A stretch of DNA of 64,000 nucleotides from Macrostomum hystrix (Eukaryota; Animalia; Platyhelminthes): NCBI GenBank assembly GCA_950097015.1, contig CATNEN010000001.1:2170001-2234000 (forward strand), in the 5' to 3' direction. The notes under the pieces are model-generated. The model saw nothing but the letters and a program-made list of their open reading frames with translations. It did no database searches and was not told the origin of the DNA. Position numbers and translations under genes: made by a program. Positions 18,274-53,700 of the stretch are shown one piece after another. Each line of letters opens with the position of its first letter. Positions within the stretch are counted from its first letter, which is position 1.

Positions 18274-20675
18274 ATGCTTTACATTCTGCTCGTGACCGGC
18301 TGTTTGTTCATACAGCCATCCCAATCTGCGTACAATGAGATCCTATTCAACAAACAAATGCTCTATCAACAGCTAATAGCATATCGCACTGAGTACATTC
18401 GTTCTGGCGGAATGACAACAACGACAGCCAAAACACCTCAAGTCACTGTAGAAGACTTGCCTCCGTTTCCAGGTGTGCAGCTAATCGACTCAGACGGCTT
18501 GTCGTTCGATCTGAAAGTGCAGAAAATCGACCTGTCGTTAATAGCTTATCAAATCTTTACCATCATCTGTCAGGGCGACAACGGCACATTTGAATGGGGC
18601 GTTCGCAACGGAAAGGTGAATCTAATAATGTTTGCTTCAGAAATCGAAGTCCCGAAACCCAGTAGACACTGATGGAGACCCAAATAATGCACTCCACCAG
18701 ACATAGCTTCCGTAGATTCATGAAAATAATAAGAAAACGTCAACAAAAATCTTTGTGAATCGGTCGCAGGGCGCAATACCGCATCTCTTGCCGAACGGTT
18801 GGATGACGAATTCGATTCCCCAAGGCTATCTAGTGCCAATGTGCATGTGTGACGGCCAACCTGCGGTGCACAGGACAATCACTCGATTGGCCAATGCCGA
18901 GCCATTCATACCTCTGCTAGACAGGGGTTTTAGCCATCTGTCAACCATAGTGATGGAGTCATGCAGTGCACACAAGGCAATCAATGTTTACTGGCAGTCT
19001 GTCTGCAGCGCCTGCAAACAGGACACCACTAAGACCTGCGTGGCTTTGTCTAAGAGTAACGACACAGCCAATGTGATTTGCAGCTGCTCTCACGGCTTCG
19101 ACCCCCAGACTCGATGCACTACTGTTACAGACCAGTGCTCAAGTCGAGTTGCACCTCACAGCACAGAAACTGGGAGAGACCTTTGCGAGGTAAGCCAATC
19201 AACATTAAAATAATGATTTTCCCTATAATGTTTTCTGTGATCGACTGTCATTTCCCAGTACACCATTATTAGTAAATTATATTCTATTCCGTGCTCCATA
19301 TTCTATTTCATAATTTCGTAACAGTAGACCTTTAACCAGCGAGGAGGCAATTCTGCTCATTCCTATTGCTCCTGAACACACACACACTCGGATTCAGTAC
19401 GCATGCACACAGTCAAACAGAGACGTGTGCACCTTTCTTGGGTTTCTAATTGTCAGGCACTGTCACTGTCACTGTGCCTCATAGGTTGGCCCTAACAGTC
19501 GTAAATTGCACGACAAGCCACCAAGCTTACTTGCTGCAACTGCGTTTCAAATAAATGTGGCTCTCCATGTGGAATCGAGCCCACAGATCTTGATATGACT
19601 CTGCCATTCACCTTTCCACTACAGACCAAAGAAGGCAACAAATGCATAGCTAACGGTGACTCCTACATGTGCCTCTGTTACTTGCCCTATTTTGAGAATA
19701 AAACCGCCATCAGCATGCCTAATTGTCGGGGTAAGCGGCGTCTGATAGACTGCGAAACTAAATTTTGTGGTAACGGCGTCTGCGTCCAATCAAGCAACGG
19801 CGTTGGGGTTAAGTGCAACTGCGACCCGGGCTTCACTGGACCGCAATGCACCCAACCTTTGGCCAATATTACCGATTGGACAGAATGGTCGGATTGCTTT
19901 CCATTGTGCGCTAACATTGGCGGCCAGATCCGAGCACGCGATTGCCAGTCCGGCGACTCGGATCCGCGCTTTTGCGAAGGCTACCGACGTCAACATAGGC
20001 GATGCTGGTCTATGCGCTGCACTGAAAACAATCTGATTAAAGTGATGGTGCAGAACCTGAAGGATCCAGCGCCGACTAGTTTGTACATGTCGTCAATTGG
20101 CGCCTTTGTGGGCACCTTCTGCTTTGTATACTTCATCGGCATACTGATCTCGATGGGCTTGAACTTTCAGGACTGGAAGCTCGAGGCAGTCAATCAGTCT
20201 GGCAAGCTGGCTTACATCATCGACCAGGTCAGTCATTTTCATTTGGCAACATACAAAAATAGCTACAAGATAAGTTTTCAAAAACTAAATATGAAGGGTG
20301 CCAAAGTAGCTCAATCCCTTCATCCGAATGCCAGTCCTAATTTCCAATTCGGTCTTTTCACGCCAGGTGTGCGATGAGCTGCTGCTTAGGCGCAGTGAAA
20401 AAGAGTTGAATAATCGTCGGGAGAAGCGTCGGAGGCATCTAGAAGATCCTGAAAGTTTCGACGACGGCGACGGCGAAAAAAATATGGAAGAAGAGATCAT
20501 CGGCGAGAGCGAGCAGTTCTTCCACAGGGGCGTGTTCGTGCCTAGACCGGTGGTTGACCACCTGACCGGGGCGACTGTGCTACAGAAGCGCAGCACTAAA
20601 AAAAAGAAATCTGAGAAGGCGGAGAACACCAACTATGAGCAGACTTTACCACTTGAAATAACGGAATCTACTTGA
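18274..20675 (+). CDS. Type I membrane protein: signal peptide, cysteine-rich EGF-like repeats, TSP1 domain, TM helix, charged cytoplasmic tail
   Basis: Exons 18274-18615, 18716-19189, 19625-20227 and 20367-20675 join in frame. Signal peptide MLYILLVTGCLFIQPSQS; EGF CGNGVC...CNCDPGFTGPQC; TSP1 WTEWSDC...QIRARDC; TM IGAFVGTFCFVYFIGILISMGL. Confidence 0.8.
19315..19595 (-). mobile_element. SINE family A, reverse orientation, diverged
   Basis: Contains CCAGCGAGGAGGCAATTCTG and GTAAATTGCACGACAAGCC blocks. Confidence 0.75.
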
Positions 20676-26041: not shown

Positions 26042-27893
26042 CACCTGCCAGTCTCACGAAGTCCAAATAACCACTAAAACCTACGAATGTGTAACCTGAT
26101 AAGTAGTGTACATTGATTAAGGTACAGGCTCCCCATTCTATACAACTGTCTCCCCATCTGACTATATTTTGAAATGACGAGTATCAACCAAATTATTTAA
26201 CTTTTCGTAGTTACACTGAAGTATATGAGACGCTAGGTCATGGTCTTACAAAGTTTATTACTTAAAAAAGAAGGCCTTTCGACATTCTGACTCCTATTTT
26301 CTATTATTTCTTGTTTGGTGGAATTAACTGACGAAGTTTCAAACAGGTATGAAGCTTTGAGTCTGCTCTCGGTGGATGTAGAAGCAAGCTTGGGAACAGC
26401 CAATTTCTCACAAGTGAGTTGGCACAAGGAGATGACAGGTCGAGTGAAACGTAAAAGACTTTAGATTGTAGGACGAACACCAGCCTCGCGACGATATGAC
26501 ACAGCGACTTTTATATCTTATCAAATCGAAAGCAGTTTTGGGGGCGGAGTTACTGACTCCGCGCGAGCACATTGGAGAGAAAGCTAAAAAGCACGTACAC
26601 ACACAGTACATTCTAAATAATTAGATATTTAGAAATGAGATATTTAGTGTCGGGCAGGTGCACAACACACCTGCCCAAGCTAGCCGCAACCAGAGTCGCG
26701 TCACCACAAGACGTAAACCACGCGTCTGAGAGAACAGAAACTAATTTGAGACATTACTACAGGTACAAGTACAACCCTAGCCCCGCTTGTCTGCCGGTCA
26801 TTATTGACAATGTACGTTTGAAACAGTGAGATACTATTATTGTCACAACGCCCCCACCCAGAGCAAACACTCATTTTTCGTTTTCCAAGCTGAGAATGAA
26901 GCTGAAAAGAGAATTAGCATGAAATTTCACCCCTTCATGCCTACAGAGAGCCTTGAAAATTGTTTGTGTTTTACGCATTACTCAACTCTAAACTGTCCAC
27001 TGAACTTGCTATAATCAGGCAGATTAGTGAAAGCGGCAGCTACAGCAGCACACTCTTCAATACACAGCGCACTACACGCAATCGGGCACTGATAGGTGAT
27101 CTAAAAGAAAATTTAGCTCTTTCTTGTTCTAATGCAGCAAAATATAGCAGCCAATAGATGTTGGTGTTCTCATTTTCAACTTCTTTCTTTCAGCCGCTAA
27201 ATTACAGCCGACATCAAACATTAACTGTAAAATAACTTTTTCCTCTAAAATTATAAAAATGTTCTGTATATTCTACACAGATCCTACATTATTCTGCGTA
27301 TTTAGACTGCAATAGAGATTAGAAAGCTACGAGTATTATACTTGTAGTTCAGCACCAAGCTCTGAAGTATCGCCACTTGGCCTAGTCCCTATTCAACATA
27401 AAAGTTGGCACCGTGTTCAATAAATCTTGCCGTTTCACTCGTGCGGTGCAATGTAAGCCAATTGAGGCTGTTCAGCAATAGACTGTGCTTCGAGAAGAGG
27501 GTAGACACTTTCTGGGCTACCATCACATGGAGAGAGAGCGAGAGAGCGATGTACAGTCACCCAGCTACCCGGTAAGGCTAGAAGTTTTGGACAGCCCAGC
27601 ATCACACTATATTCTTTGACGTAGAATATAGCTGGGGTAGAATGTACTCTCGTTGGTCGGAACTCGGAGGAAGGAAGAGAATGTCACTTTGGGTTGCTAG
27701 GAGTAACTGGATGGGATTTGGACTGGGTCTTATGCACGGGTGAATGACTCTTCTGCTGTGCTGTGCTTTCGTCTCTTTTATAGTCGCCACAACAAATCAA
27801 GCGCTTATTTTGTACAGACTGAAGCAGAACCATTTTTCTAATATTTAGCACAAAATAAAATACATTTTACACTTGCATACCGTTTTTCTGTAG

Positions 27894-30800
27894 AGCACTG
27901 CAGCAAATAACGTGTGCTGAACAGCTGGTCAACCGTGATAAAAAATCAACGGCAATGATTTTGCTTTGGTACGGCGTAGCAATTGCGCTAGTTGTGGGTT
28001 TTATCGGTGTACTTATTGGATTCTGTCTGCTCAGGAGCCGTGATATGGTGAGTAAAGTACGAGTAATTACGATCACGAATATTTCACTATTTGATGTTTG
28101 ATATTAGAGAACATTAAATTTGGACTTCTATACTCACATAAAACTTCAAATGCAATTATTAAACCAAACGCCTTTAAAGAGTTATAATTACGAAAGCAAC
28201 AGTACATGTTTAAATTATCCACGTGTCAGTATAATGATAGAATGAGTTGAAAGCAAAAAACTTTTTTCAGAATCCATCAACAGACCGCAGATTAGCAGAT
28301 GATGCGCAAAAGAAGCGGAAGCGAAAGAAGAAGGCCAACAAGAAAGCCAAGGTAGTAACCAATCTCTACTGAGTATTTTTTACAACTGGTGAAATTGTGT
28401 TACCCCCAATGATACGGTATTAGTAGGCACAATAACCAATTTATAGGTCAATTATTTCTCGCCAAATCATAACAATCAGATTTAAAGAACTTACTGTAGA
28501 GCAACGCATTGACTTGTTGTAATCCTTGACTTTTTGCGATAAAGGAGGCACCAAGTCCCGCACCTGATGACACTGGAGTCGCAAGCAGAGACTGTCACCC
28601 GAATGTGTCTCAAAGTTCGCGAGCACACGGAAACGTTGACAGGGAGATATCAGAGCTGCAATGTAGGGAAAATCAAAGAACTTCACCCGACAGGGAATCC
28701 ACCGCCAGTACTTTAAGTCGACAAAGTGGCATCCGAAGTGGCCATCGTTTGTCTGAATCTGCTTCTGCTGCCGAAACTGAACCTTCACAGTCGAGAACTT
28801 TCACGTCATTGTTGTTTAAAGGAAATCGTGAGGCAGCATCTTATTATGCATTATCGTTGCTTCAATTGGCTTAAATTTTGAAATAACTTCATAAATGTTT
28901 CAAATTTAGGCTATGAAGAGTTAGAGGAAATCGGCAGTTCGGATGAGCAAGAAACGTCCGTCCATTCTGCTGACGATTTCGAAAATCGTTTGTTAAGAAA
29001 GCGTAAGTAAAGGAACATGGTGTGATAATAATGGTGCAAAACTATATCACTTGGTGACAGCAGACCCGCACCAAGCAAGAGGCGATTCTGCCCATTACTC
29101 CGACTCCTGAACCAATACCTGAACTCTTACTGTGCCTTGATGTTTGAGGAGCTCGGGACCTTGTTGCAAGAGTAACATGCGATAATGCTCTGCCACTCGC
29201 CCTCTCGTTGGTTCTATGCCATGCCGCAACAAGGCATCATAGTAATGTCAACAATTACAATGGCTTTGTAAGTCTGTTAGGTGTAACTCCGCTCTTGTTT
29301 CAGATGCACCACTTCGAAGTGAGAAGGAGTTTAGCGGGCTGTCGCGAGATCAAAAAATGTTTGTCTACCTGCTGTCCAAGAACATAAAGGAGTCAACCCA
29401 CGTAGATTTCAAAACTTCTCTAAACACATCAAGTGACTGGAAGTTTCGTTTGCTCAAGTCAGCCTGTTCGATGTATAATGGTCTGGACCCGGACCTGAGG
29501 GAGCCGAGCCTGACGGACAAGTCCAGCCTTAGCTCATACATTCTCTACGGTGTCAAGGAGCTGGACAGAAAAACTGAAGACAAGAAGCACGAATTCGCTC
29601 CCCTGACCAGCTATCCAGGGGAAGAGGAAATTCAGGACTGCTTTAGAAGTAACACGACACCATTTGTGAAGACCTACTTTCACCTGGTGAAATTCAACTC
29701 TGAGTTGAGCTTGAGGAACAATGGGCTTACAATCCCACCAGGTTGCTACGGAATGGTAGAGATTCCCAGAGGCGACTCTGGTCCAGCTGGATTCAAAGAT
29801 ATTCGAGCTAAATCCAGTGCCAGATCTGGCTTTCAAATTAAAGCCAAAGAAGCCAGGAGACTGCTTTATTCAAGAAGCGATGCCCAAAACGTTTTAGAAG
29901 AAAACTGGGACAGCCACTTTAAAGAAATGGTCTACAGTCAGTTCGAGTCCAAATGTGACGCAAGCGAGCTATTTTGGGCCAAAGAGGACATTATTCAAGC
30001 CAGAAACGCCTTCAGAGTGCTTATAATCACCAAGTTTACAGCTGCGAAAACTGCCAAAGACAGAGAATGTCTCGCCAGATCGCTTGGCCGCGGCACCTGG
30101 GATTTGATTCTTGACTTTGATAGGGACAGTCGCAAGGAGGGAGGCATGTTCACCTTCATGGAGGAAGAAATGCGCAAGTTGGGACGCCTGAACTCAGTGA
30201 AGTCCTGGGACAATCTCTCCAGCCTGCAGTCCCACGACATCGAGGAGTGCCAGAGCGGTCACCGGACAATCTACGTTCAAGTGATGGGCTGCAGCGAGAC
30301 GAAAAAAGACGAGCCCACAAACGAACACAAGCTCCGCAAACTCTTAAAGAACCACTTACTAAACGTTGTTTTTGAGAAGAACCACAGTCCAAGGCCAGTA
30401 ATGTCTATCACTCTTTGCCTAGGCACCTCGAGCATGGAAATTGATAAATTGCTGCTGACGCCAATGGAGATAGAGTGCAGCCTGAAGGAGGCGTTTTTGT
30501 CTGAGTCTAGCAACGAGAAAGCCTTTAAGGCTTACACTTTCTACATTCAGCAGCAGTTACATACCATTTTGAGCGAGCAGCAGTCGAAGTTTTGCAAGAG
30601 TAGAACTCAGAATGTGCACCTGATTCTCAGTCCTATAAATCAGCTGCGGCATCTGTTCGAGTCCATCTATCCATCTTCGGCTGCTCCAAAGCAGTATGAA
30701 CTTCCAGGAAAGTGCGGGCCGTGTTTCTTAGCTCGGGATCGATTCGCCACATTTAAGCCTTATCTTCGACTGTACCACATTCAGTCTGGTCAGTACAAGT

Positions 30801-33438
30801 ACCGCAGCAAAGGGCTCGATCGCAAGGAGCAGTATGCCAATGACGTACGTCGACAATTCCTTGCCGGAAATGAGCTAACCAAAGAAATGTTGTATCTTCA
30901 CGAGGAGCTTCAGTACCAAAAGAGTGGCGTCTATGTCGAGCGCAGAGCTGTGGAACCACTTAAGGAGAAGGTTAGCAAATCACTAAGCCATTGTGGCAAT
31001 CGTACATTCACAAACTGGGACTCAAACGTCAGGCAAATCATTCGTCTGCAGCACGAAGCGGTCTCGGGTGCCACGACTATTGCCAGGATAGTGATGTGGC
31101 GTCTTAGAAAAGAGTATCCTTGCATTGAAGTGAAGAACTTTGACAGAATGCAAGAGGTTACAGAATGCATCTGCTATTTGCATAAAAGTACAGAGCTTCC
31201 AGTACTCGTTCTATTCGACTCGAAAGAATTTCCTCATTCCTCAGTTCATGCTTTCGCCTCTGAGCTAAACAGACGCGTTTCTTGCCCTCGCTTTGTAGCC
31301 ATATGCGTTGAGCAGGTTCGACCAAACAGCTGCGGTGACGCTGTGACTGCGAAGCTGTCCCGAGACGAGGCCAATGGCTTCACGAAAATCTACGAGGACG
31401 CTGGAGGTGACGAAAAACGCAAGCTAACCGAAAAGGTTGAGAAGGAAACGGACAGAACACCATTTCTTTTCGGAGTCTGGCATTTCAGGAATGACTACAA
31501 GAAGATAAACTTGTTTATTCAATATCTACTTGAAGATTGCGCAAAAGAAGCGAACGCTGTTTTGCACTTTGCCTGTCTCACGAAATACTTCATTCACTCA
31601 TCTCTAAATCTGTCAGTTGCGGCAAAGTTTTTTAATCTCCCACCTGAGCAGAAGGATCCTTTGCAAGTTTTGGAGCACCTTGGAGATCAGCGTCATCTGT
31701 TAACTGTCAAGAGAATGCGCAGGGGCTGGGGCTTGTCTCCGATTTCGATCGTCGGTGAGAAGGTGCTCGAATATCTATTTAAAAATGGCGACCCTGGTGA
31801 TAGAGAAGGAGAGCAGGTGAGAATGTTTGTCAACGTTCTCTGCAAAATGGGTGAGGATGGACCTGACTCCTTGATGACAAGCCTTACCCACTTAGTTCGT
31901 AGGTTGATTTCCTGTCAGAAAAGAACAAAAAATCCAAAGCTGACAGACTTCTTTATGACGATGCATGAAAACCTGCCCTTCGAAGAGATTGAACGCATCT
32001 TCTTAATGTTGGCGCGCTCTTTTCCTGACACCAGATCTCACACTTTGGTACATTTTGCTCGCTACGTCGCCTATCATAAAAATGATCATTTAAAGTCTAT
32101 TGAATTCGTCCGGAAGGCTCTCGACTTGAATGAAGACTCAACTTACTTTGCTGATACCACTTGCACTGATGACGTCGTTGTTGGTTTGTCAGCCCATCTT
32201 ATAAACTGCCGAGTGAGCTCAGGTCCTGAGATAAGTTTTGAAGAAGCCCAGTCCTGGACCATGGAAAGCATTCGACTGTGCAAAAAGATTCAAAAAAGGG
32301 GCCCAGCCAAGTCAACAGGTGCTTTCTCTACAAGGCGCACCCGTTTGTTTACGAAATCCAGGCGCAGCGACTGCTCCTCAAACGGTTCTTCGAGGCCGAG
32401 TGTCAGTCTGATGGCGAAGTGTACTTCAGGGAGCTCGAAAAGGAACAATACTGTGTTGCAATGGAAGCTCATCAGAAAATTATCGAAAATGTGCTCAACT
32501 TAGAAAAGATGCACGAGGAGGGTGAGGTGGACTCAGAAACGCTGACCGAAAAGGAAATGGGAAAACTTAATGAAGCTAAAGAAGAGTTTATTAGTCGCTA
32601 TCGGTCGTCTCAAAGTGCAATGAGAAACGCTCAGCTTCACTCGGACATCAAAGACAACGCCTATGCATGGACCATTGTCGATGTGTACACTCAGACTGGA
32701 AAGGGCTCGAAAGGTTTCGATAAAGATGACATTTTCGAATCAGAGGACAACAAGCTGCTAGCGCGTCAAATGTGGGATCGTGTATGGCGACTAAAGGGTG
32801 TGAAACCAACTGACATCGACACGCTATTGTCAATACTGCTTGACTGCAAATCAAAGCTGTCCCGAACTTACTTGGAGGCCTGTGTGCTGACAATACTGTC
32901 TCGGCCAACAAAGGACACTATCGATCGCGGCATTCATATTGCTGGTGAATGGCGACTGAAGTTCGCCTCGGATGTTCTGGCTAATTTCATGCACGGAGCG
33001 TTTTACCTGGCTGCTGCTTTGTCAAGGAAGCCGACGGACCCTGGCAGAAAGGAGAAATTACTGGAGGCTAAAAGACTGCTGGACAAGTGCGAACAGCTGA
33101 CACAGAGGGACAATGCAAGTCCGCTAGGAATTCGCAAGAATTTCCCAGGTCGCAACGTTCCGCGTCTCGTTCTCGGCAAGGGTGACAATCTAAAAGCTTT
33201 GATTTATCTACCGAGACGACGATCTTATGAGGAGCAGGAAAAACACATCAAAATAGAGACTCACTATCGAACCTTCACCGGCTATTTGAGCGACTGGGAT
33301 CGAGTGGTCTGCGAGGAGCTGGACTGGAACCTCCGGGTGCCCGGCAATCCCACCCGACAGGAGGAGTTCAGGCAGAGGCGCAAGGTCAGCTTTGCCATCG
33401 CGCTGGCCTACAGCGGACCCGTGCCTTTCATGATCTGA
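27894..33438 (+). CDS. SAMD9/SAMD9L-like STAND NTPase (AlbA/Schlafen-like, SIR2-like, P-loop, TPR, OB-fold) with a predicted N-terminal TM helix; one apparent frameshift near 32290
   Basis: SAMD9-family motifs: ESTHVDFK...SACSMYNG...YILYGVKE (AlbA), WDLILDFDRDS (SIR2-like), IIRLQHEAVSGATTIARIVMWRLRKEYPC (Walker A region), PVLVLFD (Walker B), HFARYVAY (TPR region), RKVSFAIALAYSGP (OB C-terminus). 5' exons 27894-28047, 28271-28351, 28545-28827 and 28910-29002 splice in frame to 29304. The start is uncertain (ATG 27955, or ATG 27549 via exon 27549-27571). Confidence 0.85.
29043..29200 (-). mobile_element. SINE family A, internally deleted, in the last intron of the SAMD9-like gene
   Basis: TTGGTGACAGCAGACCCGCA...GATTCTGCCCATT...GCTCTGCCAC matches the reverse complement of family A. 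Confidence 0.65.
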
Positions 33439-33811
33439 GCAGTCCTGCACTAATTTACCTGGTCAATTTAATCTTTTCTCTAAACCTAAATATTTTATTC
33501 AGCGGTTAAGATTAGCTAAATTTTCTTTTTTTATTTTGCTGCAACTAAAATTGGTAATTGACGAAGAGTCTCTGTACTTTAAGTAGTCATTGATATATCG
33601 ATCAGTGCACATGTCTACTCGAAAATTTTATAGTTTCACTGGTGATTGGTTAAAACTCCGTTTAAAAAATATCCAGAGAATTAAAATGTTGTTCTCTATT
33701 TACAAATATGTACCATTCCTAATCAAACTTTCCCTACCCAGTTTGTTCCATCTACAATATCCTCGAATATGTTTGTTTGTTAACGGCGAATGATTAATGT
33801 TTAATTTAAAC

Positions 33812-34170
33812 CAGGGGTCGGCAAACTCCGGCCCGCGGGCCAGATGCGGCCCTCGAAGCTCCCAAATCCGGCCCGTTGCCCCTTCTGACATCTACAGTGT
33901 CCTGTTTCATCTCTCTCGTGTCTAATCTCTCCCGTGTCTCTCATCGCTCTCGTATCTAATCTCTCCCGTTTGTCTAATTTCTCCCGTGTCTAATCTCTCC
34001 CGTGTCTAATCTCTTCCCTATCTTATCTCTCAAGTGTCTCATCTCTCCCGTGTCTCATCTCTCCCGTGTCTCATCTCTCCTCTAACTCATATTTATACAG
34101 TCAATGCGGCCCGCTGTCGTCTTTTAGGCTCTCTCTTTGGCCCGCCAGCAAATAAGTTTGCCTACCCCTG
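33812..34170. mobile_element. Non-autonomous hAT (Charlie/Buster-like) MITE with an 8-bp TSD
   Basis: Terminal inverted repeats CAGGGGTCGGCAAACT / AGTTTGCCTACCCCTG; subterminal GGCCCGCGGGCC; ATTTAAAC at 33804-33811 and 34171-34178. Confidence 0.92.
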
Positions 34171-34357: not shown

Positions 34358-36300
34358 AGTTTAGGTAGACTGAGAGAGTTTAGGTAGACTAAGAGAGATT
34401 AGGTAGACTGTGAGAGTTTAGGTAGACTGAGAGAGTTTAGGTAGACTGTGAGAGTTTAGGTAGACTGAGAGAGTTTAGGTAGACTGTGAGAGTTTAGGTT
34501 GACTGAGAGAGTTTAGGTAGACTGAGAGAGTTTAGGTAGACTGTGAGAGTTTAGGTAGACTGAGAGAGTTTAGGTAGACTGAGAGAGTTTAGGTAGACTG
34601 AGAGAGTTTAGGTAGACTGTGAGAGTTTAGGTAGACTGAGAGAGTTTAGGTAGACTGTGAGAGTTTAGGTAGACTGAGAGAGTTTAGGTAGACTGTGAGA
34701 GTTTAGGTAGACTGAGAGAGTTTAGGTAGACTGAGAGAGTTTAGGTAGACTGTGTAGGTAGACTGTGAGAGTTTAGGTAGACTGTGTAGGTAGACTGTGA
34801 GAGTTTAGGTAGACTGTGAGAGTTTAGTTTAGGTAGACTGAGAGAGTTTAGGTAGACTGTGAGAGTTTAGGTAGACTGAGAGAGTTTAGGTAGACTGAGA
34901 GAGTTAAGGTAGACTGTGTAGGTAGACTGTGAGAGTTTAGGTAGACTGTGAGAGTTTAGGTAGACTGAGAGAGTTTAGGTAGACTGTGAGAGTTTAGGTA
35001 GACTGAGAGAGTTTAGGTAGACTGTGAGAGTTTAGGTAGACTGAGAGAGTTTAGGTAGACTGAGAGAGTTTAGGTAGACTGTGTAGGTAGACTGTGAGAG
35101 TTTAGGTAGACTGTGTAGGTAGACTGTGAGAGTTTAGGTAGACTGTGAGAGTTTAGTTTAGGTAGACTGAGAGAGTTTAGGTAGACTGTGAGAGTTTAGG
35201 TAGACTGAGAGAGTTTAGGTAGACTGAGAGAGTTAAGGTAGACTGTGTAGGTAGACTGTGAGAGTTTAGGTAGACTGTGAGAGTTTAGGTAGACTGAGAG
35301 AGTTTAGGTAGACTGTGAGAGTTTAGGTAGACTGTGAGAGTTTAGGTAGACTGAGAGAGTTTAGGTAGACTGTGAGAGTTTAGGTAGACTGAGAGAGTTT
35401 AGGTAGACTGAGAGAGTTAAGGTAGACTGTGTAGGTAGACTGTGAGAGTTTAGGTAGACTGTGAGAGTTTAGGTAGACTGAGAGAGTTTAGGTAGACTGT
35501 TAGAGTTTAGGTAGACTGTGAGAGTTTAGGTAGACTGAGAGAGTTTAGGTAGACTGAGAGAGTTTAGGTAGACTGAGGAGTTTAGGTAGACTGAGAGAGT
35601 TTAGGTAGACTGTGAGAGTTTAGGTAGACTGTGAGAGTTTAGGTAGACTGTGAGAGTTTAGGTAGACTGAGAGAGTTTAGGTAGACTGTGTAGGTAGACT
35701 GTGAGAGTTTAGGTAGACTGTGTAGGTAGACTGAGAGAGTTTAGGTAGACTGAGAGAGTTTAGGTAGACTGTGTAGGTAGACTGTGAGAGTTTAGGTAGA
35801 CTGTGTAGGTAGACTGTGAGAGTTTAGGTAGACTGAGAGAGTTTAGGTAGACTGTGTAGGTAGACTGTGAGAGTTTAGGTAGACTGTGAGAGTTTAGGTA
35901 GACTGTGAGAGTTTAGGTAGACTGAGGAGTTTAGGTAGACTGAGAGAGTTTAGGTAGACTGTGTAGGTAGACTGTGAGAGTTTAGGTAGACTGTGTAGGT
36001 AGACTGTGAGAGTTTAGGTAGACTGTGAGAGTTTAGGTAGACTGTGAGAGTTTAGTTTAGGTAGACTGAGAGAGTTTAGGTAGACTGTGAGAGTTTAGGT
36101 AGACTGTGAGAGTTTAGGTAGACTGAGAGAGTTTAGGTAGACTGAGAGAGTTTAGGTAGACTGAGAGAGTTTAGGTAGACTGTGTAGGTAGACTGTGAGA
36201 GTTTAGGTAGACTGTGAGAGTTTAGTTTAGGTAGACTGAGAGAGTTTAGGTTGACTGTGAGAGTTTAGGTAGACTGTGAGAGTTTAGGTAGATTGAGAGA
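34358..36300. repeat. 19-bp satellite (GAGAGTTTAGGTAGACTG[A/T]) with shorter variants and a 329-bp higher-order duplication
   Basis: Visible directly. Rare variants (TTTAGTTTAGG at 34823/35152 and GAGTTAAGG at 34901/35230) recur 329 bp apart. Confidence 0.95.
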
Positions 36301-36882: not shown

Positions 36883-39800
36883 ATGTCCGAAGTGGAGTAC
36901 AGAGGCAGGGTAAGCATCCGTATTCACACTATACTAAATCTCTAAGATCTGACCGGTACGCATTTCAGTCTACAGACTTTACATAAGGTTAAGCTTTAAA
37001 CTTTTGACCGAGAGGTTAGGATTTCAAATTTCTGTCCACGGACTGAACAGCTGTAGCATTTGAATGCACCATGCAACTTGTGAACTATCGTGAAGTAGGC
37101 AGTGGGTATTTGAATAATTATTAATTATTATTATTAATAAAACACGCACGCCATCTATGGGTGCTGACTTCTTTCTATTTTCTGACAATATTTCACTCGA
37201 CAAAATAAAGAGCATAAAAACGAAGTTTTGTAAGAATTAACTATTGAGCTGGGAAAGGAAGAGCAAAGTTGTTAAAAATCAGAGTAGCAAAAACACAAGG
37301 GACGCCAGGAATAAAAAAATGAATGCATATCGTTAGATGTTATTAGCTTCAGGGCAGCTGTTCCCTTATTTTAGAGATATCTATGATGTACTTTGCTAAA
37401 GCTTCAGTAGTTTCTCTATCGTCTTGTGCAATTATGGATATGATAGAATGTAGTTATGTACACGTTTCAACTAAGTAGTTAATAGTCAGTGGCAGTAACG
37501 GTCAATACCCAGCGTGAGGTAAACATCGTTAGTCGAATTTGATCTCGATCCTGCCACCCTCGATGACAAGAGACTTGACCCCGTGGCCAGCAGTGGACTT
37601 ACCGGAGTTTCGGCCAGGCTCCGCTACAGCAGGTTGCCCGCTTGATGGACCACTGACGTTCGTCGGACGACTGGAGTCCTGCAAAGCGTCGGAAGCAATC
37701 CTCGCAACCTTGGCCGATGGGCCTATGTAGCGTTCAAGCGCAGCGGAACTGTGACCAGTAACCTTGGCAATCTCAGGCCTCGACATCCCAACATCACGCA
37801 ATGTTGTGGCACATGTCTTCCGCAGGGACTGATTGCTGTAGCAACCAGTGGTCGGCTCAGGTAGACCGTCCATCAGCGTCCGCACTACAGAGTCGAGAGT
37901 GTGTCGCCCGAGAACCTGGTTCTGGAACCACTTCCCAGCACTAACAGCAGCTTCACTGCGAAACCAGGACAAAAAGAGCTGCTGCTTCGAGCAGTTGGCG
38001 GGACGCAGGCTGACGTATCGCTTGTAGAGGCAGATGAGACAGCGGTAGTGATCCGACGAATGGTAAGCGGCGTTTCTCTTGATCGGTCGATTGAACGTCT
38101 TCAGGCCGCAGGGTCGCGTCTTGGAAACCGCAGTCTCGGCATACACCAGAACCTCCTCAGCGCCCTCATTCGTTAGTTGGATCTGCTTGTTATACTCCAG
38201 AGAGTGAAGCTCGTGTCCGCCACGAAGCCCAGACACTTTCCCTATAAGGAAAATCACCGTGAAAACCAGCATCTTAGGCGTACTATCTCCGAGCATTCCG
38301 CGATCCCAAAGTGAGGCCTCATCACAGCAGCAATAGGGGCGGCAGTCCGACTCCCATTCATGTTCCCTTCCTTGGCGGTCTCACGCATAGCAGCATCCAG
38401 GGCCCTCCACGTAGTTGCAAATTCGGCGTCCGTCCAGATAGACATCTGCTGCTTCAAGGTGTAGACATAATAGTGCTGAATCATTGCCACTAAGTCCTTG
38501 AGACTACCCGGTGGGTATTTCTCTCCATTCTCCTTACGAATCTCGAAGACGAAGAATTGGAGAAGCTCATTCACCTCAGACTTTGACAGCACCTCAAGTG
38601 GCTTTATCACCATGAGTCCGGGCACGTCGCCTTGCGCTTGCAACTGGACGCGACTTTCCTTCCACGTTCGAAACACCTTGACAGCCCACTTCTCCTTCGC
38701 ACGCGTAGCGTCGGGCAAACTCTCCGCCATCCTACGCTCCACGTCGTCGGCACTTAACACCTCACCAACACGAGTAGTATCAAGCAACGGCAGAAACTTC
38801 ACATCGGTGGCGGGTGAGGCTTCAAAAGAGTCCAAGAATGCAGAAAAGTCTAATTCTTCTTCAGCGTCGGCCATCGTGGATGCAAATAAACTCGAAGCTA
38901 GCAAGACTGATCTCTCTCTCTGACTGACTGAGCCAGCATCGAATTTCATATAAAATCGTGGCCGTTCAATTTGCAGTCTATGGTCTAAACTCTAAGCTAG
39001 CGAGAATGTTCTCTCTAACTGACTGACTGAGCCAGCATCGAATTTCATATAAAATAGCTACATGTTTGAAGCGTTTCGCGTCAATAAATGATTTGCGGCC
39101 CATTATTTGGCGCCCATTATACGGTTTAATGGGCCCCGTTTTCGGGACCATTATATGGCACACTGGTTTAAGACTTCGCATTTTCCAACCATAGACGATA
39201 GATTCGTGGCTCAGAATGCGCCCATTAAACGTCCATTAACGACGAAATCGGATTTTATATACACAATTTTGTCATCAGCTGTTAGGCTTTCGAAATTTCG
39301 AACAGTACCTGCTACTTTCTCTATGAATTTATTTCTAATTGGAACATAAACGGACCAATCGCATCTAAAAAGAATATGAGTTTCGTTCTCTACCTCGACT
39401 CTACATTTTGGGCATGTTCTGTTTTCATAGTCGATTTTCGGTCTTACAGTGCGCAATGTCTCACAGGCCAGTTTGTGGTTTCCTAGACGAAATCGGGACA
39501 TTGTGCGCCTTTGTTCTGGGTTAGAGATTATTGTTAGGTACTTTTCTCTATAGAGAAATCTTTCTTAAACGTGTAATAGAAGTGGCTGAGCTTGGCTGCT
39601 TTTCCCATCCTCTGAGTCCAGTGCCTTCGAAACTCTGACTCAAAGTTCTCTCTGTGCGTTTTGATGGACTTTGTTTTTCTAGTCTGTTGACAATTCCGCA
39701 TTACTTCACTGCTCATTTTTTCCCCAATGCCAACATCGCTGTATTCTGTATCTGCCACCAATTTCGCGATGATGGAGTCTGGTCGGCTCCGAACTGAGGA

Positions 39801-50737: not shown

Positions 50738-53700
50738 CTACTCACTCGCCTCCTGGTGGTTGTTGGTATGGTTAATGGTCCTCAACTCAAGGTTTTCGTC
50801 AGGCAATTCGCGTTGCTGGCGATTCTGAGAGCTTCTTGGATGCCAACAACGCGATAAAAACAGCTGCACAAAGACGTCTCGAAATTGCTTGGACATTGAA
50901 GTGTACATCACAAAGTTTGCGCTGTTGTTCACCAAGGACAGGAGGTCGATCACATCGCCCAGCGGTGTGTAAACATCGTCCTGGAAGCCTTCAACCTTGG
51001 AACACATGAGCGACATGATCCCCTGAGGTAGCTCGGTTATCACGAAGATCATCATGATTGTCACGAGCATTCTGGTGGTTCGCTGCTCTCTGCGCTCATT
51101 TCTCTGCTTGCGTCTAGATGGTGTCTGGCCGCTGTTTAGAAGTCGCCTTCGTCGCGTTGATGCCTTGGACATCTCGATGATGAGCAGCACTGTCATAATG
51201 GAAAGGATTAGGCAGGGAATGATCTTATAGCCGACTGCGATTGTCCAGTAGTTGGTCTCGACTAGTCCGATCGGCAGCGACTCCGGATAGTCAATGAAGT
51301 AGACAGTGGCATTATTTCGGCTGGCTGAGATGCAATACCGAACCGCATTGCTCAGGTAGTTCGGTATAGCTGTTATCGGCAGGATTATCACAACAGCGCT
51401 GATGATGATGTATGCGTTCTTGAAGTTAGCGAGCCTCGGACCGATCGTCGGCATGGCGATGTAGACAAAGCGGAACACAGCCAAGGCCGCCGTGAGCCAA
51501 CAGGCAACAGTGTGCAGCACTAGCACCTGCGTGACAAAAAATGGAATTTTGTTAGCACTCTTTAATGTTTAATGAATACAAGTTCCTTAGTTCCTTTTAT
51601 AGAGCGTAAGACAACAGAAATTAATTTTTGTAAGATTAAGATTAAATTGGGCAGCATACTATACGTACTTGTTTATATAATTTTACGTATTTTCTAAATT
51701 TAATATTCGAGGTTATCAGTCGCTGAAGCCACTAATAAAGATTGCAGCCTTGTGGTTAGAGGGTCTGACTCACGACTTGAAGGTCGGAGGTTCGATTCCT
51801 GACTCCACTGGAACAATTTGTGTCCTTTAGCAAGACACTTGACTCCGCATTGCTACAGTTCACATAGCTGTTGAATGGGTACCAGCATCAGCTGGGATAA
51901 TTGAAGGTGGGTGTGGCGTCCCCCCAGTCCACAGACTGAAAAGCTGTACGCAGCCTTCATATGCGCCGAGCAATAGCTGTCGGCTGCACATCTGTCCCAA
52001 TCGGGGCCGGTGTAATCAATAATTATTGTACTAAATAAAAAAATTAAACGAATATAATTCGGTTTTCGCTGCAATGCCTTTTTATTCCAAAGCAATCGGG
52101 AACTTGTGCACTGAGATTGCTAAAGAATAAGACGAAAACTTCACGTTGTGTGAATATTTCATACTGGGCAATCATTTTCAGATCTGTCGGCCCAGATTCC
52201 ATGCTTTCAGCTGCAGAGGTGCAAGTGGAAATCTGCAATTTTACCGATAGATATAGTTTCCCCGAAAACCCGCATGCAGTTCGAGTGTTTGGCGCGGACA
52301 TTGCTGTGGCTCTGAATTTACAAGAATGTATAATTAGTGAAGCTCCTGGCCCAAGTTTTTGTTTTAGTATGTATATAGGTATGGTACTGATATTGTACTT
52401 GGGCGCCTTAACACCAGGAGTAATCGAGTTTCAGAAATCTGTGGACTACACTCCATCTGAAGCTCCATCTGCCCTTTGGTGAGCGCCCAGCGTTCCCAAA
52501 GCTCATTATTGATCCCCCCGCGAATTTTAGCGCGAACAAACTGGGCGTTTTCAGGACAGACATTTTGTGCAAGAGGCACCTAAGTGCAGATACACACAGA
52601 CAGATTTTAATTGCGCAGCAATTTAAAATCTCGCACAGACAGTCTCTCACCTGCATGTGCACAGTGTTGTGCCTGCTTGCACAATTTCTTATCTATAACT
52701 GCGCACAATCCTGATCAATCGCCTTTTTTCATTTTCGTCAAAGAGCTTGCAGACTGATAAAGAAAAATGACTGCAATCAACAAGTTATTATTTTTTTCTG
52801 CTAATGATGGTGTCACATTTTTCAACTTGTGCATGTACCGAAAAAAAATTTAGATTCTAGATCAAGGGTCAGTAAACTCCGACCCGCGGGCCAGATGCGG
52901 CCCTCGAAGCTCCCAAATCCGGCCCATTGCCCCTTCCGACACCCACAGTATCCTATCTCATCCTTCCCCTATCTCATGTCTTCACGTTCTCGTCTCCCCG
53001 TGCCTCATCTCTCCTTTGTCTCATCTCTCCTTTGTCTCATCTCTCCCGTGTCTCATCTCTCCTGTGTCTCATCGCTCCCTGTATTTCATCTCTCCCGTGT
53101 CTCATCTCTCCTCTATATTTTCTCTCCCCTTTCTCATCTCTCCCGCGTCTCATCGCTCCATTGTCTCATCCCCCTGTCATCTCTTTATCTGTCTCATCTT
53201 TCTTATTATCTAATCTTTCTACAGTCAATGCGGCCCACTGTCGTATTTTAATTTCTCTCTTTGGCCCCATCTAATCTCACTAGCTAATAAGTTTGCTGAT
53301 CCCTGTTCTAGATACACCGAGGCTATTTTTTCTATAAAGCAGCTACATTGAAAGTAGGGTTCTTTGGATCCTTGGCTGTAGAGCCATTTGCCCTCTTAAT
53401 CAAACAGTATGATTTCGTTTGTAGGAAAGAAATTATCCGATAAAAATTTCACTGTCTTGTATCTTATTGCCTATACTTAGGTTCCTTTGTTCTAGGACTG
53501 ATTGGTAGCTCATATTAAGCTTGGTGGATTATTTTGAGTATTTTCCAAGTTCCTTATTCGAGGATATCAGTCGCTGGAGCCGCTCACCGAGCTGATGGTG
53601 AACAAGGAATAGGAAATCCACGGATAGGAAAACGTGTGCGGATGCGGCAGGCCGACGGATGGCGAGTTGAGAGTAAACTTCACCACGTGGAACAGGTAGA

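Follow-up and report, generated by a model that had tools for sequence, protein, structure and literature searches.

Does a gene of the SAMD9 family in the flatworm Macrostomum hystrix encode a protein tied to a membrane? The question is raised by a locus within a 64,000-nucleotide stretch of assembly GCA_950097015.1 (contig CATNEN010000001.1, positions 2,170,001 to 2,234,000 of the forward strand; hereafter the window), where an original prediction, made from the letters alone, had placed a SAMD9-like antiviral STAND protein with a transmembrane helix and a polybasic stretch instead of the SAM domain. We found that the gene is transcribed from a spliced chain of exons, that it encodes the domains of the SAMD9 family in the expected order and that it shares its helix and basic run with an orthologue of Macrostomum lignano (BOX15_Mlig002174g2, here P0001), but also that a one-base frameshift cuts its product short. 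The explanation that we favour, with modest confidence, is an anchored, cytosol-facing and likely autoinhibited tRNA nuclease of the SAMD9 family, with a helix common to the intact M. lignano orthologue, the window copy likely being inactivated by the frameshift.

An ATG at 27955 opens a chain of five coding exons (27955–28047, 28271–28351, 28545–28827, 28910–29002 and 29304 onward), all in frame and separated by introns of phases 0, 0, 1 and 1. As transcript data we used the four public runs that contain the core, all from one study and with no run type on record. Each of the four gave a single contig of 4.9–5.2 kb that spans every GT-AG junction (28047/28271, 28351/28545, 28827/28910 and 29002/29304) and extends beyond the last stop codon, with no mismatching letter and no gap against the window. 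Four small exons splicing in frame onto the core had been proposed at exactly these junctions, and the contigs reproduce both them and the N-terminus quoted at the time. The introns have zero coverage in the runs and the contigs therefore represent spliced RNA; a retrocopy in DNA runs was considered as their origin and ruled out on the same ground. As one contig joins the hydrophobic exon to the core, that exon belongs to the SAMD9-like gene and the helix is N-terminal: transcription does not begin only after it, nor is the exon part of a separate gene. No isoform without the hydrophobic exon was seen in the four runs, in whose contigs rare forms can be lost, and no second gene copy was found by tblastn within the window or at 80% identity or above in the runs.

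The interval first assigned to the gene, 27894–33438, covers its coding part, but a 5' untranslated exon at 26913–27095 lies outside it. The joint of this exon to 27894 was found in one run of the four (X2), with a loose end agreeing with it in X4, and the exon is optional: other contigs run unspliced to 27766–27824, giving two types of 5' end. As the upstream exon contains in-frame stops, the first in-frame ATG is still that at 27955. The features of the gene, with the evidence behind each, are as follows.

26913–27095 (+): upstream non-coding exon with two out-of-frame upstream open reading frames (31 and 25 codons), joined GT-AG to 27894 (run contigs)
27894–28047 (+): exon 1, with 5' untranslated region, first in-frame ATG at 27955 and predicted transmembrane helix (approximately residues 3–26) (contigs, alignment)
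28271–28351 (+): exon 2, with polybasic KKRKRKKK (residues 45–52), the same in P0001 (contigs, alignment)
28545–28827 (+): exon 3, low-complexity Ser-rich linker (contigs, alignment)
28910–29002 (+): exon 4, acidic end of the linker; the models of the M. lignano paralogues P0002 and P0152 start at the equivalent point (contigs, alignment)
29354–29950 (+): AlbA_2/Schlafen-type nuclease domain, with acidic codons at 29390 (E), 29405 (D, followed by F-K) and 29558 (E) (Pfam, fold)
29957–30679 (+): SIR2-like Rossmann domain (model residues 218–458, fold matches)
30680–31800 (+): Delta domain and STAND NOD module, bounds approximate (profile, fold, alignment); NOD residues are Walker A His 31052 and Thr 31073, Walker B Asp 31217 and Sensor-1 Gln 31313, with the winged-helix His absent
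31801–32326 (+): HD2/TPR1 helical region as far as the frame break, start approximate (profile, model)
32321–32327 (+): frame break, one base short of the orthologue's frame, in genome and RNA contigs (alignment, contigs)
32327–32503 (+): 58 out-of-frame residues and premature TAG at 32501–32503 (translation)
32326–33438 (+): stranded −1 frame with the end of TPR1, TPR2 and the OB fold (OB at approximately 33060–33430), open throughout (P0001 alignment, profile)

The core is that of a SAMD9-family member. Its first 215 residues, folded alone, reached Z ≥ 5 with 7 of 48,161 chains, all of them AlbA_2/Schlafen-type; the best Foldseek match of this domain is the SAMD9 tRNase (E 5.9e-4), and it superposes on SAMD9 7ksp with Z 9.2 (root mean square deviation [rmsd] 3.7, 157 aligned). 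The Pfam match to PF04326 (AlbA_2) has an E of 2.6e-4, which is under the curated cut-off. The SIR2-like domain resembles those of SPARSA (Z 14.7, rmsd 3.4, 205 aligned) and ThsA (Z 13.3, rmsd 3.6, 192 aligned). A search of 1.84 billion representatives returned 319 relatives at E ≤ 0.001, with 150 of them listed. A 107-sequence profile matched human SAMD9 with E 1.2e-81 over a span running from the nuclease as far as the TPR region and, a second time, the SAMD9 C-terminus with profile positions 1235–1354 (E 3.6e-5); these correspond to residues 1452–1574 of P0001, which align to the −1 frame of the window, so that the TPR array and the OB fold are encoded in the gene. SAMD9 was reached by the profile only, P0001 as a single sequence giving nothing in the PDB at E ≤ 10. 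When the 1006 residues preceding the break were modelled with AlphaFold2 (56-row alignment, predicted local distance difference test score 90.1, OB part left out), the closest fold was that of SAMD9 (Foldseek, E 2.8e-27; VIA, Z 20.7, rmsd 20.6, 670 aligned), followed by Avs5 and SIR2 defence proteins, and a search of the ESM Atlas led to SAMD9-like clusters with scores of 0.95–0.96. Profiles and folds thus recover the family that had been named from the sequence.

The N-terminal helix, of the transmembrane length predicted for it, exceeds every other 19-mer in the product in hydrophobicity (Kyte–Doolittle [KD] 2.95). The six frames of the window hold nine stretches with KD ≥ 2.6 and the score alone is therefore not rare; the helix rises above chance because its exon is spliced in and because it is conserved in P0001. 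That orthologue, which carries the UniRef name SAMD9-like and for which no paper was found in the literature, has 1577 aa in one intact frame, a core 76% identical to that of the window, and the same helix, KKRKRKKK run, homologous linker and NOD changes. The two N-termini are homologous (alignment score 166, equalled by none of 1000 shuffles, whose maximum was 28.5), as are the linkers alone (score 110, matched by 0 of 1000 shuffles). Divergence of the linker is far greater than that of the core, and the hydrophobicity of the helix is maintained (summed insertion scale −3.57 in the window and −3.61 in P0001). The basic stretch said to follow the helix is present, although it begins 18 residues downstream and does not adjoin it. 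P0001 has no SAM match at E ≤ 0.01 and the window's N-terminus consists of the helix and a low-complexity linker, in agreement with the replacement of the SAM domain. Within the poorly conserved linker, at the junction of exons 3 and 4 (28819–28927), an Asn-Arg-aromatic-Glu-x-Leu motif is kept in both sequences and possibly represents a candidate binding motif; nothing was found in the literature for a short Asn-x-Phe-x-x-Leu motif.

Related genes with transmembrane N-termini were also sought. P0001 alone among the 151 listed relatives, some of them fragments, contains a 19-mer with KD ≥ 1.9 within the first 150 residues; the other relatives do not, including P0002, and no such 19-mer occurs in P0152. 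These two paralogues start at the acidic stretch corresponding to exon 4 and, in a tree of the first 40 of the 107 rows from a quick, unfinished search, branch outside the pair of the window and P0001. Their start and branching suggest that the helix exons were gained by a soluble ancestor in this lineage, unless the P0002 and P0152 models miss 5' exons. M. lignano has several divergent SAMD9-like paralogues, and the named proteins nearest to that of the window are from this species. As for where the helix exons came from, residues 1–400 of P0001 matched only themselves among 3206 candidates of 867–2760 aa, and residues 1–190 had no usable match in the ESM Atlas. Of 1591 candidates, none was a longer fused form, and none of 105 pattern matches in metagenome contigs was confirmed.

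The frameshift changes what the window copy can make. The core is split over two overlapping frames (29246–32503 and 32242–33438), and the alignment to P0001 follows the first to 32326 and the −1 frame afterwards, indicating a loss of one base at approximately 32321–32327 or, by structure and alignment mapping, at SAMD9 position ~1175–1190. The RNA contigs hold identical letters and the break is thus neither an assembly error nor an intron: the former was rejected on the letter-for-letter agreement of the spliced contigs and a small intron over the break on the lack of such a joint in them. Translation of the mRNA gives 1249 aa that end within TPR1, the first 1191 in register and the remaining 58 out of frame; TPR2 and OB are missing from this protein and present in P0001. 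The original prediction overlooked the frameshift and expected a complete AlbA-to-OB protein, which the locus does not yield. AlbA, SIR2-like and P-loop motifs stand in the order that it gave, but, as the contigs join the core frames by neither intron nor indel, the OB-like motif at ~33400 lies outside the 1249-aa product.

Identity to P0001 is equal, at 76%, on either side of the break (776/1007 before it and 282/370 after it), and the downstream frame is free of stops. A stop would arise from 165 of its 3330 possible single-base changes, and its absence bounds neutral decay to ~5% per site. Equal identity and the lack of a stop in the stranded frame mean that the base was lost recently or that the frame remains in use. 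Activation of human SAMD9 depends on the OB/SIR2 contact (PMC13600222). The truncations that activate SAMD9L are limited to ~883–950, and SAMD9 truncations mostly cause loss of function (PMC13750292). As the break lies past the gain-of-function zone of SAMD9L and the OB/SIR2 contact would be lost, the most probable result, by analogy with the human proteins, is loss of function: the 1249-aa product is likely to be non-functional, and we infer that the window copy is a recent loss-of-function allele in the sequenced line. An ATG at 32509, just past the premature stop, could start a 309-aa piece with TPR2 and OB; reinitiation there, after a long open reading frame, is unlikely.

Whether the intact form could act as a nuclease depends on residues known from human SAMD9, whose tRNase requires E184, E196, E218 and D241 (PMC10246899). 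The Asp-Phe-Lys of the window shows the spacing of E196 and K198, and a Glu at codon 29558 occupies the D241 position. An upstream Glu is presumably the counterpart of E184, a match that we made through the Schlafen motif. The P-loop is without the Walker A lysine and has the upstream His; His, Gly and Thr-Thr are retained, whereas the second Gly is replaced by Ala, as in 16 of the 107 rows. The P-loop of the family is defined by GGT/S, the upstream His and the absent Walker A lysine (PMC5445408, PMC13600222). The first Walker B acid is also retained.

In the intact form, the helix would be an uncleaved signal anchor, inserted most likely into the endoplasmic reticulum (ER) and leaving the C-terminus cytosolic. 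In favour of this orientation, the 30 residues that follow the helix have a net charge of +10 in the window and +9.5 in P0001, compared with +1 and +1.5 ahead of it. The basic run would bind acidic lipid or RNA/ribosomes, and the 130-residue linker would allow the AlbA domain to reach tRNA. Tethering to a surface would raise the local concentration and so replace clustering through SAM or DEATH-fold domains, a substitution that is conceivable because human SAMD9 is activated beyond a concentration threshold by intermolecular SIR2/SIR2 and OB/SIR2 contacts (PMC13600222). An infection cue would then open the STAND core, the clustered AlbA domains would cut tRNA and local translation would halt. 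That the protein is in this way an anchored, active and compartment-restricted SAMD9, with no recoding involved, we put forward tentatively.

Several observations weigh against the anchored tRNA nuclease. Over the 15 nearest residues on each side of the helix the charge difference is zero in both the window and P0001, so that the predicted topology depends on more distant charges. The helix is carried by just two sequences of one genus, no acidic residue stands at the SAMD9 E218 position in the window, and, given the high rmsd to SAMD9, the domain packing in the model either differs or is not confirmed. In the alignment, Sensor-1 is Gln in the window, P0001 and P0002 but Arg in 99 of the 107 rows, and the winged-helix His column, filled by His in 94 of the 107, is empty in the window, P0001, P0002, P0152 and P0005. 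The human SAMD9 protein loses its activity with R837A and is activated by H985A (PMC13600222); as the two changes act oppositely there, the flatworm switch may work differently, and by this analogy the nucleotide switch of the flatworm branch has likely been rewired. With the Sensor-1 Arg and the winged-helix His gone in addition to the Walker A lysine, which is absent in all SAMD9s, the earlier label of NTPase is unwarranted. Finally, the four runs share one study and contigs lose rare variants, which makes an intact allele possible.

The same altered residues (E218 equivalent, Sensor-1 Arg and winged-helix His) favour the alternative that survives best, though it is unlikely: that the intact protein, though anchored, has no antiviral role and works instead in RNA surveillance or in the control of stress, on the ER or some other organelle, or acts as a scaffold with a weak nuclease. 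Its layout recalls the ER ribosome and mRNA receptors p180 and kinectin, in which an N-terminal helix is followed by a Lys-rich run. However, all characterised relatives that we found (SAMD9, Avs5 and Avs9) are defence proteins, three acidic nuclease positions are retained, and the several divergent paralogues of M. lignano would be typical of an immune family.

It is improbable that the truncated 1249-aa product is itself functional, as a de-repressed or dominant-negative anchored nuclease freed of its C-terminal clamp. The break falls at a TPR1 loop (SAMD9 1173–1192) that contacts the nucleotide-binding domain and is a site of gain-of-function mutation (PMC13600222), certain SAMD9L truncations activate (PMC13750292) and OB is reported missing from scattered family members (PMC12680541); in addition, the premature stop sits in the last exon and the mRNA was recovered from all four runs. 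Activation by truncation is nevertheless confined to the narrow zone given above, most SAMD9 truncations losing function, the undecayed state of the stranded frame means that selection can have had little time to act on a short form, and a constitutive tRNase would presumably be toxic.

We see little room for a helix that is a cleaved signal peptide or is inserted in the inverted orientation, with the core then lacking a tether on the cytosolic face. The unbiased charge within 15 residues would allow it, as would a Leu-x-Ser site located after the helix in the window, but at the equivalent site P0001 carries two residues that signal peptidase disfavours, Trp at −3 and Pro at +1. Moreover, the hydrophobic stretch is ~24 residues long with no basic N-region, and a luminal tRNase with an ATP-binding module would seem to be without substrate.

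Very improbable, in turn, is a −1 ribosomal frameshift that bypasses the break and yields a short anchored form with a minor full-length one. The break is present in the transcript of all four runs with no second copy at 80% identity or above, and the downstream frame has no stop and equals the upstream part in conservation, although a recent deletion accounts for the open frame just as well. A formal X XXY YYZ heptamer lies at 32299–32305, 8 codons 5' of the break and in a loop that varies among the paralogues, with ~0.08 expected by chance in this part of the overlap; yet its pattern was relaxed after the data had been seen, and homology locates the switch away from it, at 32321–32327. Heptamers with C in the Y positions, as here, are inefficient, no stimulatory structure was found (z +0.18 to +1.07 over five windows of 70 nt), and P0001 reads through in a single frame. 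We give hardly any credence to the composite idea that the anchor replaces SAM clustering and the switch is rewired, making a tRNA-cutting kill switch confined to one compartment, and that in this species the break is a recoding site at which slippage determines how much sensor-less short form is made relative to the full-length one.

Compared with known systems, the gene agrees with human SAMD9 and SAMD9L in the order AlbA tRNase, SIR2-like, Delta/NOD, TPR and OB, in the lysine-less Walker A with its upstream His and in a disordered segment preceding the nuclease. At ~15% identity, it differs from them in having a predicted single-pass helix and basic run and not a SAM domain, in its Sensor-1 Gln, in lacking the winged-helix His and the E218 equivalent and, unlike the unbroken P0001, in being cut in TPR1. 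Bacterial Avs9 (AlbA-SIR2-STAND-TPR-OB) and Avs5, the latter a fold match, share the SAM-less core, and many AlbA plus nSTAND5 proteins of ~1225 aa are among the matches listed; those of the Avs9/Avs5 type that were examined have no N-terminal helix, and they lie outside the 17-row clade of the window in the quick tree. N-termini of the family are known to be SAM in vertebrates, DEATH-fold in other animals and kinases in bacteria (PMC5445408). Forms with HEPN_DZIP3, DEATH-fold or kinase N-termini have the same core and underline that the N-terminus is exchangeable (PMC5445408), but in them the effector or adaptor is exchanged, whereas the window keeps AlbA and adds a localisation module. Eight relatives (P0006–P0009, P0011 and P0013–P0015) have a HEPN_DZIP3 N-terminus on a SAMD9-type core and no AlbA match, six of them above the Pfam cut-off; judged by their sequences, this is a swap of the effector from AlbA to HEPN. 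Such HEPN-fused proteins rank next after the four M. lignano sequences and P0005 among the matches listed, and HEPN_DZIP3 is found in 45% of the 84 members of an ESM Atlas cluster. P0054 carries a PNP_UDP_1 N-terminus on an nSTAND5 core and resembles Avs6 (PMC12680541).

Anthozoan NLRs are likewise animal STAND proteins predicted to be membrane-bound, through 3–5 N-terminal transmembrane segments (PMC3879445, PMC5094078), but they belong to the NACHT-LRR class, carry the multi-pass segment at the effector position and have no nuclease. N-terminal swaps in the SAMD9 family and membrane-bound STAND proteins are therefore already known, and what the locus adds is a predicted single-pass anchor on an AlbA-bearing SAMD9, backed by transcripts in the window and conserved between two sequences of one lineage. 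The prediction knew of no description of this architecture, and no membrane-anchored SAMD9 appeared in the titles or abstract openings of the papers listed from a mostly non-subscription literature. The three supplements of PMC5445408 contain none of the words "transmembrane", "Macrostomum", "HEPN" and "TMHMM", and in passages from the main text of PMC12680541 neither "transmembrane" nor "Macrostomum" occurs.

Other features of the window lie on both sides of the gene. Directly past it, at 33810–34170, is a dispersed repeat with inverted-looking ends and a depth of more than 1500 in each of the four runs; a G-skewed minisatellite comes next, at 34360–36000. On the minus strand, 37529–38991 matches QRICH1 (E 2.4e-9) and DUF3504 (E 2.9e-20) in two overlapping frames, is interrupted near 38300 by either a frame break or a small intron, and resembles a Crypton-type tyrosine-recombinase element; 50738–51568, also on the minus strand, is an exon of a rhodopsin-family G-protein-coupled receptor (top match 7TM_GPCR_Srw, E 1.1e-26). 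A Cys-rich frame on the plus strand at 19505–20377 has a weak thrombospondin-1 match (E 2.7e-4) and then a hydrophobic stretch.

As the window copy is probably a broken allele, it is the less valuable object of study. M. lignano, on the other hand, is amenable to RNA interference, and the intact orthologue can therefore be tested. The characterised SAMD9 and SAMD9L are cytosolic, and a natural SAMD9 tied to a membrane would test both tethering as a substitute for SAM and tRNA cleavage limited to a single compartment. The gene extends the SAMD9 family to flatworms, in one branch of which two residues that tune the human switch have been lost naturally.

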